Positions 8,201 through 60,581 of a stretch of DNA of 64,000 nucleotides are shown here, piece by piece. Position 1 is the stretch's first letter. Every line of letters starts with the position of its first letter. The stretch lies in IMG/VR virus record IMGVR_UViG_3300045988_123953; one strand, 5' to 3'. Origin of the DNA: a virus. The notes under the pieces were generated by a model, which was not told where the DNA came from, searched no databases, and worked only from the letters and a program-made list of their open reading frames with translations. The position numbers and the translations under genes were made by a program.

Positions 8201-11200
8201 ATAAACTATATACAGGCAATGCCGATCTTCTTACTGCGAGAGAAAAAGATGTGTATGATAAATACAAACAAGATTTTGATGATTATGTATCATCTTTGGG
8301 TGACAGTCCTGTTAATCTCATAAAATCATTATCTGAGAAGGCTGATAGGCTTACAAGTCCGAGATCTGTGTATGAGGATAATAAAGCTATTATTGATATG
8401 GCTAAATCCAATTTAGAACCAGATCAAAGGAAGGAACTTGATGATGCTATTTCTTCGTATGTTGACATAATGAACAGACGGGATAAAGGGGAGAGGGTTG
8501 ACGAAGATAAGCTTGCCGATTCGGTATTTACCATAGAAGATCTTGGCCAGGTTGGAAACATCACAGATCTCCTTCCTTATATCGAACAAAACAGGATTAT
8601 TGATAAAGGTCGTATTTCCGAATCTACGTTAAGTAATTTTGGGGAGGATGATGCTAATATAGATTCTCTTGTAAATGAGTTAGACGAATCCGATAATACG
8701 CCGGGAGCCAATATAGATAGCGCCCAGAATCCAGAGACGTTGATGGTTAGAAGAATATCCAACGATGGCAACGAAAGGTATGAAATTGCAGGTCTTAGAG
8801 CCGATAAATTTATATCTTCTATAAAATCATTGGTTCCTATTCAAATAAGCTCTGAAACGAACGCTAATGGCACTAAAAGGTATTCTCTTAACATAGGTGG
8901 AGAAACGGCTACCGTGATAGAACTGCCTTATCATGCGAGATGGTCTATAGACAAAGAATCGGCTCGTGTTCTTAACCGTTACACAGATGTGTCTATTCAG
9001 GACGTGGGTAATTCCTATTCTTTGGTTTATAAGCGTCTTGATTCAGATGAGTTGGTTCCGTACAGAACGGGTGTCGGATTCGGAGAGAATGAGGTAGATA
9101 AAATAGATCAGGAAGCATTATCTTCTTTGAAAAAAGGAGATAAGGTTAATCTCGAAATAGATGTAAATGATACCTATAATCAGTCTCTTTTTGCCGAATA
9201 CAATGATGCTGTTCAGTCCGGAGATAAAAAAAGAATAGAATCTGCTGAAAATAAACTGGTTTCCAATATGGTTATCAAGGTCATGAGTGGAAACAGATTC
9301 GTTTCTGTTGTAAAAGCTGACACAGGGGGCATAGATGGTATAAGTAAGATAAGAAGAACGGCTTTCGACAAGTGGAAGAAGGACGCCGGCCGGTCGGCTA
9401 CCATCGGCGTCGGCACGCATGTTGTTGCCCAGACCCTTCCCGGAAGACCGGTGTTTAACATGAAGGTGAACGGTCAAGGATATGGCCAGGTAGAAAATCT
9501 CCCTATTACCGAAAAAGGTGCTGAAAAAGTATCTGATGTCGGATATGTATTAAATGGCAAAGTCGTGCTTAAGAACGGATCTAAATACACAGGCTTCCCA
9601 TTTGCTTATTCTATATTAAATGACAAGGGGAATAATTACAAAAATGTAAGAGTTCCGGTAGTTGTCATCAAAGGTAAAAACGGTCTTAATTATCTTTTCC
9701 CGGTTAGCCTACGTTCTGTAGAATCAGAGGAAGGGCGGAAATGGATGTCTTTTATAGATATGCTGCTTGAATCCGGTGATTCTGAATTGCCACAGATGGG
9801 TCAAGATGATATACAAGATCTTAATGCGTATCTAACCAAGTTAGGTCTTGATCCGGCTTCGTATCAAGTATCGTATTTGAATCCTATTTCAGGTCTTAGA
9901 AAAGCTCGTGAGGCTATAGAAGAATTATCTACAGTTCCTGATGTTGTTAAGTGGGTAGAAGATGGAAGTAGGAGTGTGAAAGACATTGTGACGTCTGAAG
10001 TAGAATCTGGAATAGATTTCGAAGGTGAGATGTTTGTCGCTCCTAAGATCAGGATTCAGTTTGGTAAATCATCTTCCAGCCCTAAGTCGCTTATAGAGGA
10101 TGATCTTCCTTTCTCTGATGAGGGTAAGACCGTTACTTCTAAAGAATACGTGGATGTTTATGAAGAGGAAATGCCAGAGGAAGGGACTATCCTGGGGACT
10201 CAGCCGGCGCCATTAGCTCAGCCGACTCCTGCGGCACAAGCTGCGCAGTCTTTACCTGGCAAGAAGCGCACCTCCAGGAAAAACTTCTCTCTTATGTTAA
10301 ACGAAATAGAATCTCATATAGAAAAAGAAGGATTACCGCCTTATGCTAATATTTTTGATTTTATAGCAAGGAAGATTGTAGGAGGTGACTTGAGGTTTCT
10401 TCGTGAGAGAGGTAATCCTAAAAGTCTTAAGGAAGAAATGGGATTAGAACCTAAAGGAACAGTAGGTGATAAAATATCCACTCCTTCCAGTAAAGGTGGT
10501 AAGACCTTAGAAGAATACGTTTCTTGGCTTCGTTCTCAAACAGATCAGGTGGTGGTTGATTATGTTGGGCCAAGATCTGACGAACAAATTATATCAGAGT
10601 TGAAAAACTTTTTGAAATATATTAATTTTGTTCCAAGCAAGGCTTTGAATTATTCTCTTAGAGTCAATGGCATGGATACCCTAAAAGAATATGGCACAAA
10701 AGAGGAAGTAGAAAAAATGGAATCTGATATCAATAGTTTGGTTTCTAAAGTTTTGCCTACGGTGGATAACCAAACTATAGAAGATGTTTCTACTGCAATA
10801 AAATCAAACAACTTGCCTGCTATATGGGAGCCCGTGGAAAGCCTTAATATGACAAATGAGGAAAAAATAGAGTTTTTGAATAACATAGCGGATTTCCTTA
10901 GCGGCATACCAGAGTATGATGCTGTTGTGGAGTCTATAGAGTCAGAATCAGATAATATTTTAAATGATGGAAAAGAAGGAAGTGCAGAAGGCGGTGCAGT
11001 ACGCGCTGAGGAAGATGGCGATAAAAAGGGAGATGGAGAAGGCAAAGGACAATCCAGAACAAATGTCGAAGTTAAAGGAAATATCGAATTACCTGGATAT
11101 GAAGAAGGAAGAGTAGATAACTATAGGAAGAACGGAGATAAGTTCTCTGACATTGCTGAAGTCACTTTATGGCTACTTAGAAGGGCTGCCGGCATAACCT

Positions 11201-18620: not shown

Positions 18621-19012
18621 ATTCATATTGTTTTATTTTAAATCTAATTAATTCATGAATGTCGTACTTTTGTTGAAAAAGTATTCTATATGGAAAATAA
18701 GGAAGATTACGTTGGTTACGAAGATCAAGAACTGTGTAACCGGTATTACAAAGAGGCTGAAGCCATGAGGCAAAAGCAGGACTGGTCTCGGCTTAGGGCT
18801 GTCCCTGCTCCGGCCAAGGGAACGCCATCGCCCGGCTGGGGTCAGCTTGGACGTGGAAATGGTGTCCGTGTTAAGTATGTGAGTATCAATTCAGGATTGG
18901 GAGGAGATAGGTTATGACCGTAGAAGAATTAGCTAATAAAAGATACGGTGGCGAATTTGTTTTCATATCCGAAATAACATTAAAACAATATAATTTCATT
19001 ATAAGGTTTTAA

Positions 19013-19256
19013 TATCCGGACCATAAATGGTCCGGATATTAGCCTAAGCCTTGAAACGAAGGCTACGTTATTTGAGAATAGATAGTTATCTACGGATGTT
19101 TGCCCAAGTCTGTAGCTCTAAGGTGGGTGATTAAACAGGAGTAGTGTATTTGCGAAACAGTGTTGCTTACGAAAAACCTTAAATAACATTGGCGATGGGT
19201 ACTAACAGAGTTTTACTCTGACTTATGTTGAATAAACATTGAAAACGTTTGTAAGT
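19013..19256 (+). ncRNA. Putative omega-RNA (IscB guide-RNA scaffold), copy 1
   Basis: Non-coding segment immediately 5' of iscB, about 90% identical to the segment 5' of the second iscB copy; the differences include two fully compensatory changes in a 6-bp hairpin (AGCCTT-GAAACG-AAGGCT vs AGTGTT-GAAACA-AACACT) and loop-only changes in a second hairpin (CAGAGT-TTT-ACTCTG); begins with a 9-bp hairpin ATCCGGACC-ATAAAT-GGTCCGGAT. Confidence 0.55.
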
Positions 19257-20477
19257 ATGGTGTACGTACAGGATATAAATGGTAAACCTATGATGCCTAC
19301 AACGAGGCATGGTAAGGTAAGGAGACTGCTTAAAGACAAAAAGGCAATCGTTGTAAACCTATGTCCGTTTACCATCAAATTAATGTACGTTACATCTGAT
19401 TACAAACAAGAAATCGTGTTAGGCGTTGATGCTGGTACTAAACATGTTGGTTTATCAGCTACAACGAAAAGCAAAGAACTTTACAGTAGTGAAGTGATCC
19501 TTAGAAATGATATCGTAGATCTTTTGTCTACCAGAAGGGAGCTACGAAGAACAAGACGGAATAGGTTGAGGTATAGAAAACCTCGTTTCAATAATAGAAT
19601 AAAAAGCAAGCGTCCAGGATGGGTAGCACCTTCGGTGAAGTACAAAATAGACGCCCATATTCGTGTTATTGACAATGTATGTTCTATATTACCAATATCT
19701 CGTATTGTTATTGAAGTAGCTCAATTTGATACCCAAAAAATCAAGAATCCCGATATCTCCGGTAACGAATATCAGGAAGGGGATCAACTTGGTTTTTGGA
19801 ACACAAGGGAATATGTCTTGGCAAGGGATGGGCATAAATGTCAGTATTGTAAAGGGAAGTCAAAAGATAAGATCCTTAATGTCCATCATCTTGAATCCCG
19901 AAAAACGGGAGGTGATTCCCCTTCTAATCTTATTACCTTATGTGAAACTTGTCACAAAGAATACCATAAAGGTAATATAGATTTAAAGATCAGAAGAGGC
20001 AAGTCGCTCCGCGACGCAGCCGTAATGGGAATCATGAAATGGAGGTTGTATGAAGAACTAAAATCTAAATACGACAATGTTTCTATGACTTTCGGGTATG
20101 TTACAAAATACAATAGGATTAATCATGGTATTGAAAAATCCCATGTTTCTGATGCCTTTGTCATTTCTAAGAACTTCAACGCGAAACGAATCGGATGTCA
20201 ATATTTAAAACGTTTAATTCGTAGACATAACAGGCAAATACATAAAATGAAAATTTTAAAAGGAGGAAAGAAGAAAAACAATCAAGCTCCTTTTGAGGTT
20301 TTCGGTTTTAGATTGTTTGATAAAGTGTTGTATAACAATGAAATATTCTTTGTTTATGGAAGGAGGAAATCAGGGAGTTTCAATATCAGGGATTTCAACG
20401 GAGAAAATTCAAAAGATGTTTCACACAAAAAGTTTAAACTCATTAGAGGGAAGAGGCATCCGATTATATTAAAGTAA
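19257..20477 (+). CDS. iscB: IscB RNA-guided nuclease (OMEGA system), intact, 406 aa from ATG 19257
   Basis: Domain order read from the translation: PLMP-like N-terminus (NGKPMMPT), RuvC-I (VLGVDAGTKHVGLS), Arg-rich bridge helix (RRELRRTRRNRLRYRKPRF), RuvC-II (IVIEVAQFD), HNH (CQYCKGK...NVHHLESRKTGGD...LITLCETCHKEYH), RuvC-III (KSHVSDAFVIS). ORF track starts at an upstream TTG (19239); copy 2 starts at the ATG. Confidence 0.9.
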   Translation: MVYVQDINGKPMMPTTRHGKVRRLLKDKKAIVVNLCPFTIKLMYVTSDYKQEIVLGVDAGTKHVGLSATTKSKELYSSEVILRNDIVDLLSTRRELRRTRRNRLRYRKPRFNNRIKSKRPGWVAPSVKYKIDAHIRVIDNVCSILPISRIVIEVAQFDTQKIKNPDISGNEYQEGDQLGFWNTREYVLARDGHKCQYCKGKSKDKILNVHHLESRKTGGDSPSNLITLCETCHKEYHKGNIDLKIRRGKSLRDAAVMGIMKWRLYEELKSKYDNVSMTFGYVTKYNRINHGIEKSHVSDAFVISKNFNAKRIGCQYLKRLIRRHNRQIHKMKILKGGKKKNNQAPFEVFGFRLFDKVLYNNEIFFVYGRRKSGSFNIRDFNGENSKDVSHKKFKLIRGKRHPIILK

Positions 20478-20514
20478 ATGAATAGATTTAATAAATTTAA
20501 TATAAAAACGTATC

Positions 20515-47376: not shown

Positions 47377-47898
47377 CTATTTGGGGTTATATCTGTCAAT
47401 TATTTCAATAATCAACCTACCTCTTTCTTTAATCATTCCCCTGCTTTCCATATCCAGTACCTTCTTTACCGCATATTTCCACACAAAAGGAAATTCTGTT
47501 TCAAGTTTATCAAATTCTATCCGGTCAAGATACATGTCGAATACCGTATGCTCCGATTCATGTAGAAAAACTATATTATCTCTGCAAGTGGCAACCGACT
47601 TATATATCCTTTTCGGAAGTATGTGACATACGTTACATACTGTAGGAAAATGAATAGCCCTACCAGTCATAGACATCCGAATACTATTTAGCTCTTCCAG
47701 CATAAGACGAAAAAACCCGGATAAATCCGGGCTCTCTAACTTTTTCTTCTTGCTGCTGTTTTTAATGGATGTAATTCTGTTTTTCTTCTTCGGAGTCAAC
47801 TCTTTGCTCCTGCAAGCCTGGCATAAGCCATGACTTCTTATCATCACTTTTCGTCCGCATCGTTCGCAGACGTATAGCTTCTTTTCCTTGCTTTCCAT
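47377..47898 (-). CDS. Zinc-ribbon protein (173 aa)
   Basis: CERCG...CQAC at the N-terminus. Confidence 0.5.
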   Translation of the reverse strand: MESKEKKLYVCERCGRKVMIRSHGLCQACRSKELTPKKKNRITSIKNSSKKKKLESPDLSGFFRLMLEELNSIRMSMTGRAIHFPTVCNVCHILPKRIYKSVATCRDNIVFLHESEHTVFDMYLDRIEFDKLETEFPFVWKYAVKKVLDMESRGMIKERGRLIIEIIDRYNPK

Positions 47899-48083: not shown

Positions 48084-48570
48084 TCTTCTTCTCGCCTAAT
48101 TTTTCAGCTCCCTTCTGAAGATCATATTTGAATACGTCAATGATCTTCGTTTCAGCAATAGCTTCGCAATTCCAGTCGCCTAACGTGCCCTGCATACCTT
48201 TAGTCAACACAGCTTCGGCATCCTTAGGATTGCCGGCCTGGACATACATATAGCATGGAGTTTTCTTTTCTTTACCTTTCTTTTCATCCAGTGTAATGTA
48301 ATTTACCTTACACTTATACCAGTACTCAGCTTCTCCGTTGAAGAAGATTTCCGACACTTTAATAGGATTTATTTTAACAATGTCGAACACTTGAAATAAA
48401 TCCTTGAAAATCTCTAAAGATCTTGATTCTGCCTCTGTATAAGATAAGGCATCTACCAAATACTTTTCAGTTACCTTCTTTTTTTTGCCGTTCTCGATAT
48501 TATCAATCTCGGCTTTTACTGTGATTTCAAACCAACGATTCATGTCTATATTTTTATTCAAATTAATCAA
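48073..48570 (-). CDS. Hypothetical protein (165 aa) abutting the iscB copy-2 stop
   Basis: ORF; TTG start, or ATG at MNRWFEI. Confidence 0.5.
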   Translation of the reverse strand: MINLNKNIDMNRWFEITVKAEIDNIENGKKKKVTEKYLVDALSYTEAESRSLEIFKDLFQVFDIVKINPIKVSEIFFNGEAEYWYKCKVNYITLDEKKGKEKKTPCYMYVQAGNPKDAEAVLTKGMQGTLGDWNCEAIAETKIIDVFKYDLQKGAEKLGEKKSEE

Positions 48571-49793
48571 TCCATTTCCTTTTGTACCATAAAGCGTTTA
48601 CACCTTGATAATTTCAATTTCTTGTATGTAATATCTCTTTGGTTTTTACCATCAATATCTCGAATATTAAAACTACCGGTTTTACGCCTTGCGAATATAA
48701 AATAATAACTGTTTTCAAACATAACCCTATCAAACAATCGGAAACCAAAAACTTCAAAAGGAGATTGATTTGGTCTTTTTATCCCTCCTTTTGGAATCTT
48801 TTGTTTATGGATCTGACGATTATGTCTTCTTACTAATCTTACTTTATAATAATATCCTAACCTTATAGCATCAAAGTTTTTAGAAATAACAAATGCATCG
48901 AAAACATGAGATTTTTCAATACCATGTTTAATCCTATTGTATTTTGTAACATAACCGAAAGTCATAGAAACTCTGTTGTATTTAGACCTTAGTTCTTCAT
49001 ACAATCTCCATTTCATTATTCCCATTACGGCTGCGTCGCGAAGCGACGATCCCCGTTTGATCTTTAAATCTATATTACCTTTATGGTATTCTTTATGACA
49101 AGTTTCACATAAGGTAATAAGATTAGATGGGGAATCTCCACCTGTCTTTCGTGATTCAATATGATGAACATTCAATACTGGGTCTTTTGACTTTCCCTTA
49201 CAATGCTAGCATTTATGTCCATCTCTTGCTAAAACATATTCCCTAACGTTCCAAAATCCAAGTTGATCACCCTCCTGATATTCTTTACCTGATATATTAG
49301 GATTGTTAATCTTTTGAGTATCAAATTGAGCTACTTCGATAACAATACGAGATATTGGTAATATAGAACATACATTGTCAATAACACGAATATGGGCGTC
49401 TACTTTGTATTTCACCGAAGGTGCTACCCATCCCGGACGCTTACTTTTTATTCTATTATCAAAACGAGGTTTTCTATATCTCAATCTATTTCGTCTTGAT
49501 CTTCGTAGCTCCCTTCTGGTAGACAAAAGATCTACGATATCATTTCTAAGAATAACTTCACTGCTGTAAAGTTCTTTGCTTTTCGTTGTAGCCGATAGAC
49601 CAACATGTTTAGTACCAGCATCAACGCCTAACACAATTTCTTGTTTGTAATCAGATGTTACGTACATTAATTTGATGGTAAACGGACATAGGTTTACAAC
49701 GATTGCCTTTTTATCTTTAAGCAGTCTCCTAACCTTACCATGCCTTGTTGTAGGCATCATAGGTTTACCATTTATGTCTTGTACGTACACCAT
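48567..49793 (-). pseudogene. iscB: iscB copy 2, interrupted by a single in-frame TAG (49203-49205) at the position of Gln in copy 1 (HKC*HCKGK vs HKCQYCKGK)
   Basis: ORF track splits it into 49206..49793 (PLMP, RuvC-I, bridge helix, RuvC-II) and 48567..49175 (HNH, RuvC-III) in the same frame; ~93% aa identity to copy 1, with nucleotide differences mostly synonymous. Confidence 0.75.
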
Positions 49794-50055
49794 ATCTACA
49801 AACGTTTTTAATGTTTATTCAACATAAGTCAGAGTGAAACTCTGTTAGTACCCATCGCCAATGTTATTTAAGGTTTTTTTTGTAAGCAACACTGTTCCTG
49901 AATACCAGAACTGTTTAATCACTTACCTTAGAGCTACGAACTTGGGCAAACATCCGTAGGTAACTATCTATTCTTAAATAACGTAGTGTTTGTTTCAACA
50001 CTTAGGCTAATAATCGGAATAGCTTTTGGCTATTATGCATAATACAATACAAATT
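49794..50055 (-). ncRNA. Putative omega-RNA, copy 2 (minus strand)
   Basis: Reverse complement aligns to 19037-19256 with covarying hairpins; begins with a 6-bp hairpin AATAGC-CAAA-GCTATT, then the shared ATTAGCCTAAG. Confidence 0.5.
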
Positions 50056-50167
50056 GTTTATGATTTGTATGGGTTATGCATTATTCTCGATTATTCTGTT
50101 TGTTTTTTTGGACAAAGATATGTCTTTTGATAATAAAAAAGATTCAAAATGATTTAATTTAGCTTAA

Positions 50168-58955: not shown

Positions 58956-59406
58956 GCAAAAATTTAAAAACGACCTTCATTACATTTCCAAAGTTCTCCA
59001 CCTTAACCCACTCGTGAGCTACTGCTCTAAGTACGGATGTTTCGTATGTCGGAATATCGTCTTCTTCAACCACCTTACAAGAAGCCAGAACTCCTTCAGT
59101 CGGCTTTAGTCCGAGGTCATGCAGCTCGCAGAGACCGCCCGGCTGGCGGAATGCGCACCACCCGTCTTTCTCTGTTGGCTGGATCATCGCTATTGGTTTT
59201 TCTTTCACTGCAAGATACCCTACCATCCACATTGTTTCTTTTAACCTGTCAGCGTATCCGGCATCTATGATAGCCTCTATGTCTTTTGGCGTACCAATAC
59301 AAGGAACTTTACACATGTTTTTACATTTATCACATGTACAAGGTTGCTCCCATCTGTTATGATCTATGCCTACCAACTTCTTTATCCGTTCTACTTCTTC
59401 TTTCAT
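58933..59406 (-). CDS. Cys-cluster protein (157 aa; CTCDKCKNMCKVPC)
   Basis: ORF with a clustered Cys motif. Confidence 0.5.
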   Translation of the reverse strand: MKEEVERIKKLVGIDHNRWEQPCTCDKCKNMCKVPCIGTPKDIEAIIDAGYADRLKETMWMVGYLAVKEKPIAMIQPTEKDGWCAFRQPGGLCELHDLGLKPTEGVLASCKVVEEDDIPTYETSVLRAVAHEWVKVENFGNVMKVVFKFLHENERRK

Positions 59407-59407
59407 A

Positions 59408-59692
59408 TTATACTATCTCTGTTAGTTTTTCATAATACAACTTCATTTCCGGTGAAGCATATTCCATGAATGCTTCGAATAAGTAGGGTACCTCTATTAT
59501 CATATTCACATTACAACCTTCTGCCTGTGAAAGAGATTCAAGATCATTGCTGTATGAACACGTTACATGAGCTCCTACATTAAACACATGTAAATCTAAT
59601 CTTACATATTCCATACATAAATCTAACGCTTTAAACAAGTTTTCTACCTCAATCTCCTGAAATAGGTCTATAAACATCCTTAAATCCATCAT
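59408..59692 (-). CDS. Hypothetical protein (94 aa)
   Basis: ORF. Confidence 0.45.
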   Translation of the reverse strand: MMDLRMFIDLFQEIEVENLFKALDLCMEYVRLDLHVFNVGAHVTCSYSNDLESLSQAEGCNVNMIIEVPYLFEAFMEYASPEMKLYYEKLTEIV

Positions 59693-60072
59693 TTTACTAC
59701 CCTTTCTATGTGTTTAATTAATACTACCGCCATTCCATTGCCGGTTTTTATCGCACATTCCGATCCTTTTATCCATTCTACACATCCTACATACTTTTCT
59801 GTAGAATGAAAACCTGGATTGTATTTTCCAGATGTACTGAACTCTACCGTATTCCCCACCTTCAGATCATCAAAAGCAATAGACCATGTGGTCCAAATTC
59901 TATCATGTCTCCCAGGCTGAATAGCTCCGATTACGCCTTTTTTACGACCGTTTTTTATCGCCCTTAGTATTATCTTTCTATCACCTTCGATAAGGCTGCA
60001 AAAGCGCCCGTAAAAGGTCAAATCAACCTGTTTTCCTCCTATTTCTTCTCTTATTTTTGTTATTCTGTTCAT
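59689..60072 (-). CDS. Hypothetical protein (127 aa)
   Basis: ORF. Confidence 0.5.
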   Translation of the reverse strand: MNRITKIREEIGGKQVDLTFYGRFCSLIEGDRKIILRAIKNGRKKGVIGAIQPGRHDRIWTTWSIAFDDLKVGNTVEFSTSGKYNPGFHSTEKYVGCVEWIKGSECAIKTGNGMAVVLIKHIERVVK

Positions 60073-60316
60073 TTTCTGATTTTGTTTTATTTTTTTCCTT
60101 GTTTTTTCTATCTTCTATAGAAGATGATAATAACATTATCTTTTCTATGTTACTTTTTGACTGTAAAAAAGAATCGCATTTCATTACTACTACCACCTTC
60201 TTAAGTTCCCCATTATCGTATAGCGATACACGCATCATGTTTTGCACCTCGTCCACTATCAGACCTGGAGTAGTCTTAGCCATTTTGCGTAGCTTATTAT
60301 ACTCCGGTCTTTCCAT
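60023..60316 (-). CDS. Hypothetical Lys/Asn-rich protein (97 aa)
   Basis: ORF overlapping its neighbour by 50 nt; weak. Confidence 0.35.
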   Translation of the reverse strand: MERPEYNKLRKMAKTTPGLIVDEVQNMMRVSLYDNGELKKVVVVMKCDSFLQSKSNIEKIMLLSSSIEDRKNKEKNKTKSENEQNNKNKRRNRRKTG

Positions 60317-60581
60317 TTCCTCTGTTTATTACTCTATAGTATTTATCCTTATCCCCTTCTTTCAACTTCTCCAGATAGAAAATTCCATCATGTAAATGAG
60401 ACAAACAAAACCTGTATCCGTATTTCTGTACTCTTCTTACATGATCCCGCAGTCTTATCTCTTCACTTTTGTCTTGTACTTTGATTTTAATACTGTCTCC
60501 TTCTTTGATTGTGTATAAAATAGTTTGAATCTCTTCTTTTTTCATCTTATAAAATATTTTAACGGCAGCACCTATACTCAC
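60297..60581 (-). CDS. Hypothetical protein (94 aa)
   Basis: ORF. Confidence 0.45.
   Translation of the reverse strand: MSIGAAVKIFYKMKKEEIQTILYTIKEGDSIKIKVQDKSEEIRLRDHVRRVQKYGYRFCLSHLHDGIFYLEKLKEGDKDKYYRVINRGNGKTGV

Follow-up and report, generated by a model that had tools for sequence, protein, structure and literature searches.

A single in-frame amber codon in an IscB gene of a crAss-like gut phage: most probably a recent nonsense mutation, not a change of genetic code

Stop-codon recoding of TAG into glutamine (Gln) is found in Lak phages, and most iscB loci have no adjacent tnpA. In IscB elements, the ωRNA scaffold constitutes the right end of the transposon, the guide is located in the 5' flank, and the transposon-adjacent motif (TAM) lies by the other end; in Geobacillus, this TAM is TTCAT, i.e., ATGAA in reverse complement (PMC10055086). 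Suppressor tRNAs of crAss-like phages are mainly encountered within two groups, beta and zeta (PMC7886860). Here, we analyze a locus that touches both subjects, in a stretch of 64,000 nucleotides (nt) of viral DNA (IMG/VR record IMGVR_UViG_3300045988_123953), the whole of which is hereafter called the window. The window belongs to a crAss-like gut phage of around 150 kb, and the sole close GenBank phage record is csAssE-Sib (OR575929, 151 kb, human gut), with around 92% identity over the common blocks. It contains two inverted paralogous IscB–ωRNA elements (IS605-type OMEGA, for obligate mobile element-guided activity), in each of which an Rfam HEARO/ωRNA match is followed by an iscB open reading frame (ORF) on the same strand. 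Copy 1 is intact, while copy 2 is interrupted by one in-frame TAG. We conclude that this TAG is very probably a recent C-to-T nonsense mutation, which makes copy 2 an ordinary new pseudogene, and not the sign of an altered genetic code.

Both elements have the architecture of the characterised IscB–ωRNA elements, such as OgeuIscB and ISGst of G. stearothermophilus (PMC10055086): the RRXRR/RuvC region precedes the HNH domain and the HEARO/ωRNA is found upstream, on the same strand. The scaffold also starts at the element boundary and the presumptive guide is the flank 5' of it, as in the arrangement described in PMC10055086.

Copy 2 forms one frame of 408 codons with exactly one internal stop and no frameshift, as an earlier note on this DNA had reported, and this stop is indeed aligned to a Gln codon of copy 1 (CAG, Gln196 of the intact paralogue of 406 amino acids, aa). 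Its position had to be corrected: the TAG is the reverse complement of 49206-49208, and 49203-49205, where it had been placed, is the next codon (CAT, His). We scanned IMG/VR with the copy 2 protein, obtained 301 matching stretches, and kept 80 loci; the relatives' ORFs from these loci, plus csAssE-Sib, constitute our comparison set. Opposite the TAG, tblastn alignments of the 82 relatives' ORFs spanning the site give Gln in 81 cases, Arg in one, and a stop in none, and codon 196 of the readable relatives is CAG, CAA, or, once, CGG. At loci L009-L017, the element occupies the same site as copy 2, between flanks that are 88-99% identical to the window, i.e., these are orthologous insertions in different strains. 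Between copy 2 and its nearest alleles (L009 and L010), 3 of 1227 nt have changed: two synonymous C/T sites (positions 81 and 243) and position 586, where CAG becomes TAG. The mutated base is C in L009-L011 and T (coding strand) in copy 2. Downstream of the stop, not one change separates copy 2 from the intact L009 allele, and the ωRNA with the spacer (49794-50095) is 100% identical to that of strains with an intact iscB. The TAG is derived and private to the window genome; it is also very young, since the ωRNA, the remaining ORF, and the element ends are still pristine. The very recent C-to-T nonsense mutation preferred by the earlier note is thus supported by these same-site alleles. The exact intact 408-aa protein is present on 68 public contigs and the exact 195-aa truncated product on 3-4, both being counts of exact-sequence contigs rather than 90% cluster sizes (the cluster of the intact allele includes unrelated NrnB-like proteins of 319 aa). 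All the TAG-bearing loci retrieved as DNA are 100% identical to the window, so that they bring no independent confirmation. On the coding minus strand, the three differences (window 49713, 49551, and 49208) are all T in the window and C in the relatives, which could be due to chance, cytosine deamination, or a damage artefact.

According to this reading, an IscB–ωRNA element located just upstream of a DUF4494 gene has undergone a single C-to-T transition at window position 49208, converting the CAG of Gln196 into an amber stop within the first CxxC, a zinc knuckle, of its HNH domain. The stop lies between both cysteines of this motif ('DGHKC-stop-HC' in copy 2 vs 'DGHKC-Q-YC' in copy 1). With the standard code, translation would halt after 195 residues, and the fragment would keep the N-terminal RuvC region and lack the HNH domain and the C-terminal half, so that copy 2 should no longer yield an active nuclease. 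The exact coincidence of the TAG with a Gln codon carries no weight. Indeed, of the 6 transitions that can produce TAG in the intact allele, 3 begin at CAG, and 12 of the 23 transition-type nonsense routes begin at Gln codons; because half of the routes to TAG start from CAG, this coincidence is no more than chance.

The two copies were also compared with each other. Their protein identity is 345/406 (85%), and not around 93% as first estimated, and it falls from 188/195 (96%) before the stop to around 75% after it, as counted on the alignment. The differences had been described as mainly synonymous third-position changes, which holds only roughly: 117 of the 201 nt differences are at third positions, but Nei-Gojobori counts give around 110 synonymous vs 90 non-synonymous changes. 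We ran the dN/dS comparison on each side of the TAG that had been proposed as a check. For the whole gene the ratio is 0.15, with 0.05 upstream of the stop and 0.15 downstream of it. These values cannot date the lesion because nearly all the divergence between the copies is older than the mutation (only 3 positions separate copy 2 from the intact L009 allele); it is this nearest intact allele that gives the informative comparison, with no change past the stop. This divergence is mosaic, with a dS of around 0.2 in codons 1-150 and saturation in codons 300-400; hence, the copies are old mosaic paralogues and not simple recent duplicates. Modules of the paralogues are also shuffled among relatives: L085, at the copy 1 site, carries a copy 2-type ωRNA 5' module; L014, at the copy 2 site, carries a copy 1-like HNH patch (QYCKGKSKDK); and L013 shows clustered changes at nt 737-746. 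The mosaic copies and the shuffled modules point to gene conversion between paralogues, a process that could repair the TAG too.

Several points weigh against a recent nonsense mutation. The TAG allele is effectively observed once, as the identical contigs may share one sample or individual; CAG may also be present in the sampled population, or the base call at 49208 may be wrong; UAG may be subject to a low level of natural read-through; and the tRNA scan of this very genome is that of the window, around 80 kb of the genome lying outside it. The TAG could also have arisen as an error of sequencing or assembly, or represent a minority variant in a population whose true consensus is CAG. It has been found solely in contigs that match the window at 100% identity, and the fact that all three differences from the nearest allele are T-for-C on one strand would fit damage or deamination as well as chance. 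However, the same base is found in at least two differently named assemblies, i.e., ERZ1304308 NODE_1302 (the name of which gives around 28x coverage) and the lineage of a 145.8-kb scaffold in ERZ28596267. Moreover, copy 1 carries C at that position, so that the TAG cannot stem from copy 1 reads mixed into the assembly, and the T at position 243 is common to the independent loci L012 and L013, so that not all the differences are artefact-like. We consider such an artefact unlikely. The earlier note had also raised a split, possibly regulated, IscB, in which the 195-aa N-terminal fragment and a re-initiated C-terminal fragment would together form an active nuclease. Both halves are open and undamaged, and an in-frame TTG, the next in-frame start, is available around 10 codons past the stop (ORF 48567-49175). 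On the other hand, the break is inside the first CxxC of the HNH domain, and a restart at the TTG would wholly lose this zinc knuckle; gene callers start the next gene much further downstream, with a product of 132 aa; and the architecture exists in no relative spanning the site. There was also no time for adaptation to a split form, because the allele is only 3 nt away from an ordinary intact gene. This two-piece nuclease, which did not stand up to the comparison, appears extremely improbable.

When a gut phage gene has a stop where Gln is expected, a change of code readily comes to mind; here, we set this idea aside on direct comparative evidence. A suppressor tRNA of the phage or of the host would decode the TAG as Gln and give a full-length copy 2 IscB, perhaps only late in infection. 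The stop is exactly where the relatives carry Gln, the part of the genome outside the scanned window leaves room for a tRNA gene, and TAG-to-Gln recoding with suppressor tRNAs, which are sometimes undetectable, is documented in other crAss-like groups (PMC7886860). But a lone in-frame TAG at a CAG site is also the expected product of a C-to-T hit, and recoding needs further signs, i.e., other in-frame TAGs or a suppressor tRNA. Both had been proposed as searches, and both were run on the window and related sequences. The window contains no tRNA gene. The nearly complete csAssE-Sib record and the tRNA-cluster loci of relatives served as proxies for the rest of the genome: the only tRNAs of csAssE-Sib are those for Cys-GCA, Arg-CCU, Gln-UUG, Met, Tyr, and Lys, with no CUA, UUA, or UCA anticodon in its positions 1-150,000, and ARAGORN detected none of these anticodons in 88 related loci (1.7 Mb). 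None was present either in 160 further loci (1.45 Mb), which cover both tRNA clusters of the relatives and include the contigs holding the nearest iscB alleles (L163 and L164). No suppressor tRNA(CUA) is thus found in the window, in csAssE-Sib, or in 240 related loci (around 3.1 Mb). For in-frame stops, a first unfiltered tblastn screen was swamped by spurious antisense ORFs and N-terminal stop-to-stop extensions, and alignments were then required to contain exactly one stop, flanked on each side by 40 residues aligned at 50% identity or more. After this filtering, iscB, with its TAG, is the only real conserved gene of the window to contain an in-frame stop, the other matches being antisense-frame ORFs or natural gene ends. 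TAG terminates 10 of the 81 ORFs, including one of 2140 aa, and is conserved in position as the terminator of six genes common to the window and csAssE-Sib. Recoding TAG raises the coding density from 0.892 to 0.901 only, like the TGA and TAA controls. In addition, the TAG allele stands alone when compared with the ORFs of relatives that span the site, and the lesions of sister copies are TGA stops and frameshifts, none of them TAG. The phage uses the standard code and, by all these tests, TAG is not read as sense, in agreement with the earlier opinion that genome-wide recoding is unlikely; the suppression of this single TAG, offered as an alternative, is very unlikely as well. Apart from iscB, a plus-strand ORF (60057-60395) ends in TAA (60393-60395) where an ORF of L013 has Gln and continues to 174 aa, and it may be either a real gene or a second truncation.

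The nonsense mutation of copy 2 is one case of a decay that is routine for the selfish IscB copies of these phages, a selfish lifestyle (guide derived from the flank, cleavage of empty sites favouring retention) being suggested by analogy with described elements. Among the 82 relatives' copies, around 8 are defective, with lesions that show no bias to TAG: a TGA at codon 41 (L012), a TGA at codon 336 (L033), frameshifts (L026, L079, and L073), and 5' deletions by which part of the ωRNA or the start of the ORF is lost (L048 and L084). One 90%-identity protein cluster consists of 60 N-terminal fragments with varied end points, some of which are clear products of frameshifts or indels. These varied, independent lesions in sister copies show that decay is recurrent, as would be expected when a selfish element exists in many copies that are inactivated at random. 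The 90%-identity cluster of the intact IscB allele (P0018 and P0021) also holds unrelated NrnB-like phosphodiesterases of 318-319 aa; at one insertion site (L031-L033 and L046), iscB is directly upstream of an NrnB-like gene, and gene calls that run the two together may have linked these proteins in one cluster.

A dead iscB gene could still be accompanied by a useful RNA. The ωRNA of copy 2 is untouched and carries a different flank-derived presumptive guide than that of copy 1, the proteins share 96% of their first 195 residues, and the ωRNAs are around 88% identical over the aligned repeat arms. As a speculation that we regard as rather doubtful, the IscB of copy 1 might use the copy 2 ωRNA in trans, and copy 2 would then be a natural 'guide-only' satellite cutting or homing at its own target. 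If true, such a role would explain why nonsense alleles can last for a while in multi-copy phage genomes.

The proteins of both copies can be assigned, from their sequences, to bona fide IscB. Pfam detects PF14239 (RRXRR) in copy 1 (E 1.2e-59) and over the whole model in the 195-aa fragment of copy 2 (E 3.4e-61). In copy 1, the HNH domain covers residues 195-238 (E 1e-9); in copy 2, it is matched in the frame past the TAG (E 2e-8), but is interrupted by the TAG at its second residue. Homology to solved IscB structures is strong (best chain, E 6e-45; OgeuIscB, PDB 7UTN and 7XHT, E 8e-43). The motifs GVDAG, IEVAQF, NVHH, and SHVxDAF line up with the matching segments of these solved proteins. 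The catalytic residues within these motifs are presumably those of OgeuIscB. Upstream, on the same strand, the Rfam HEARO model (RF02033) is spanned in full, with 113.1 bits for copy 2 and 89.3 bits for copy 1 (gathering score, 83). No Y1 transposase (tnpA) Pfam match was found among the called genes within ±10 kb of either copy; both elements therefore look non-autonomous, and in this they resemble most iscB loci.

The limits of the elements were defined by comparing insertion sites, and Table 1 collects the coordinates. Across many different upstream flanks, homology begins at the same boundary, around 58 nt upstream of the Rfam match, with ATAATCG in elements of the copy 2 type and ATATCCG in those of the copy 1 type, ATTCTCG being also seen. 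The ωRNA scaffold thus extends beyond the HEARO match by around 58 nt in copy 2 (50037-50095, minus strand) and 47 nt in copy 1 (18965-19011, plus strand), an extension that the Rfam model handles as an insertion within P1. In the minimum-free-energy fold of copy 2, two hairpins lie inside an outer stem AATAATCG...CGATTATT, and the start of the element pairs with CGATTAT, closing a three-way junction. The inner long hairpin of this 5' module appears to show paired changes between element subfamilies (loci L009-L088). The homology with csAssE-Sib stops at window 18966, beside the scaffold start of copy 1 at 18965. By analogy with characterised elements, the guide would be the flank 5' of the scaffold, outside the element.

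Table 1. Coordinates of the two IscB–ωRNA elements in the window
Feature	Positions	Strand	Description
iscB copy 1	19257-20477	+	Intact 406-aa ORF, RRXRR + HNH; reference for the Gln codon
Copy 1 ωRNA scaffold	18965-19206	+	HEARO match 19012-19206 plus 5' module from 18965; flank ...GGCGAATTTGTTTTC directly 5'
Copy 1 element 3' tail	20478-20514	+	Adjoins the ATG (20515) of the downstream T4_Y16D-like gene (PF26092)
iscB copy 2	48567-49793	-	One frame, 408 codons, single internal stop
Copy 2 codons 1-195	49209-49793	-	PF14239 RRXRR, N-terminal RuvC region; truncated product if the TAG terminates
In-frame amber codon of copy 2	49206-49208	-	TAG (CTA on the plus strand); changed base 49208; replaces CAG/Gln196
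Copy 2 codons 197-408 + TGA stop	48567-49205	-	Rest of HNH, region aligning to RuvC-III (vs OgeuIscB), C-terminal region; undamaged, in frame
Copy 2 ωRNA scaffold	49844-50095	-	HEARO match 49844-50036 plus 5' extension to 50095; presumptive guide, flank 5' of 50095
Copy 2 element 3' tail TTAATTTGAATAAAAATATAGAC	48544-48566	-	Conserved; adjoins the ATG (48541-48543) of the downstream DUF4494 gene (PF14902)

At the other side, the element ends around 23-37 nt past the iscB stop. Among loci L009-L088, we distinguished, by our own grouping, around 17 distinct 3' junctions, in each of which an ATG comes immediately after the conserved tail. In the cases that we checked, a co-oriented phage gene starts with this ATG, i.e., DUF4494 (copy 2), T4_Y16D-like (copy 1), NrnB-like, or Ro60-like. 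An ATG likewise comes after the copy 1 guide flank in csAssE-Sib. These junctions suggest a ..CAT/ATG target or TAM and an insertion just upstream of start codons, which would spare the genes; the TTCAT TAM of ISGst (PMC10055086) is similar to the reverse complement (..CAT) of the ATG junction. By analogy, the IscB–ωRNA complex would cut element-free genomes at the site matching the guide, and recombination would then copy the element in.

The presumptive guide flank of copy 2 (junction 50093-50100; positions 9600-9700 of loci L009-L026; 5250-5460 of L001) shows, from strain to strain, nested deletions that end at or within one base of the scaffold start. A stub of a small ORF is retained over 82 nt in the L009 type and is shorter by 10, 6, and around 40 nt in L013, L016, and L015, respectively. 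The whole stub (84 nt) is gone in the window, L017, L021, L022, and L024, and L019 has a duplication. These strain-variable deletions therefore indicate that the guide is turned over between strains, possibly through self-targeting scars or through recombination between neighbouring insertions. We had considered csAssE-Sib as a clean empty site and rejected it: both copies replace DNA rather than insert into it, and the exact target sites are unreadable from this record. Compared with csAssE-Sib, copy 1 (18965-20514) stands in place of 1.25 kb (100173-101418) including a DUF2829 gene, and copy 2 (48584-50096 vs L001 5123-5357) takes the place of most of an 86-aa ORF. A possible route to such replacements is the insertion of two elements in the same orientation beside different ATGs, followed by recombination between them.

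Several IMG/VR contigs carry two copies at different sites, and the number and the location of copies vary by strain. A third iscB element, around 75% identical, is found in L009 (16302-17607) and L013 (16343-17648), and its site (around 42916-42951) is empty in the window. The csAssE-Sib record has no iscB at either window site and has two annotated TnpB genes (58986-60125 and 64190-65413); TnpB genes in csAssE-Sib vs iscB in the window phage mean that different OMEGA-type elements populate this phage lineage. The same record contains a diversity-generating retroelement at 45751-47816 (variable and template repeats plus a reverse transcriptase). Public metagenome contigs match the window at 100% identity, among which a scaffold of 145,840 bp, and the name of its close GenBank record and the genome size suggest the 'epsilon' crAss-like phages, a group described in PMC7886860, as a candidate group of the window phage. 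Our literature search found no paper on csAssE-Sib and, for IscB in crAss-like phages, general review material only. This lineage of around 150-kb crAss-like phages offers a natural system to study RNA-guided homing and guide turnover in phages: IscB–ωRNA elements are numerous in it (301 IMG/VR matches), they occupy around 17 or more sites and are present several times in a genome, they always lie directly 5' of an ATG, and their junctions on the guide side differ from strain to strain.

Compared with known systems, the event in copy 2 is an ordinary one, within a known kind of element. The closest systems are the characterised IscB elements, from which the window elements differ in several respects. 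Their proteins are shorter (406-408 aa vs around 495 aa for OgeuIscB), they reside in a phage genome and not in a bacterial chromosome as OgeuIscB/ISGst-type elements do, and their ωRNA 5' module reaches around 58 nt past the Rfam model as a three-way junction. Copy 2 is moreover nonsense-mutated, unlike the IscB of OgeuIscB and ISGst, and the nuclease activity, the guide, and the TAM of the window elements are predictions from sequence. Copy 2 also resembles the decayed or non-autonomous copies of the IS605 family (pseudogenised tnpB or iscB, guide-RNA-only remnants), in which the ORF is inactive and the RNA and the ends are intact; compared with them, it represents the earliest possible stage, i.e., a single nonsense single-nucleotide polymorphism (SNP) with no secondary decay. 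The recoded gut phages (crAss-like beta and zeta groups, Lak phages) share with the window phage the ecosystem, the broad assemblage, and the TAG/Gln pair. However, the signs that diagnose recoding failed here: the window does not show multiple in-frame TAGs, no suppressor tRNA was found in the window, in csAssE-Sib, or in the related loci scanned, and TAG is kept as a conserved terminator. The TAG of copy 2 is one private SNP in the gene of a mobile element.

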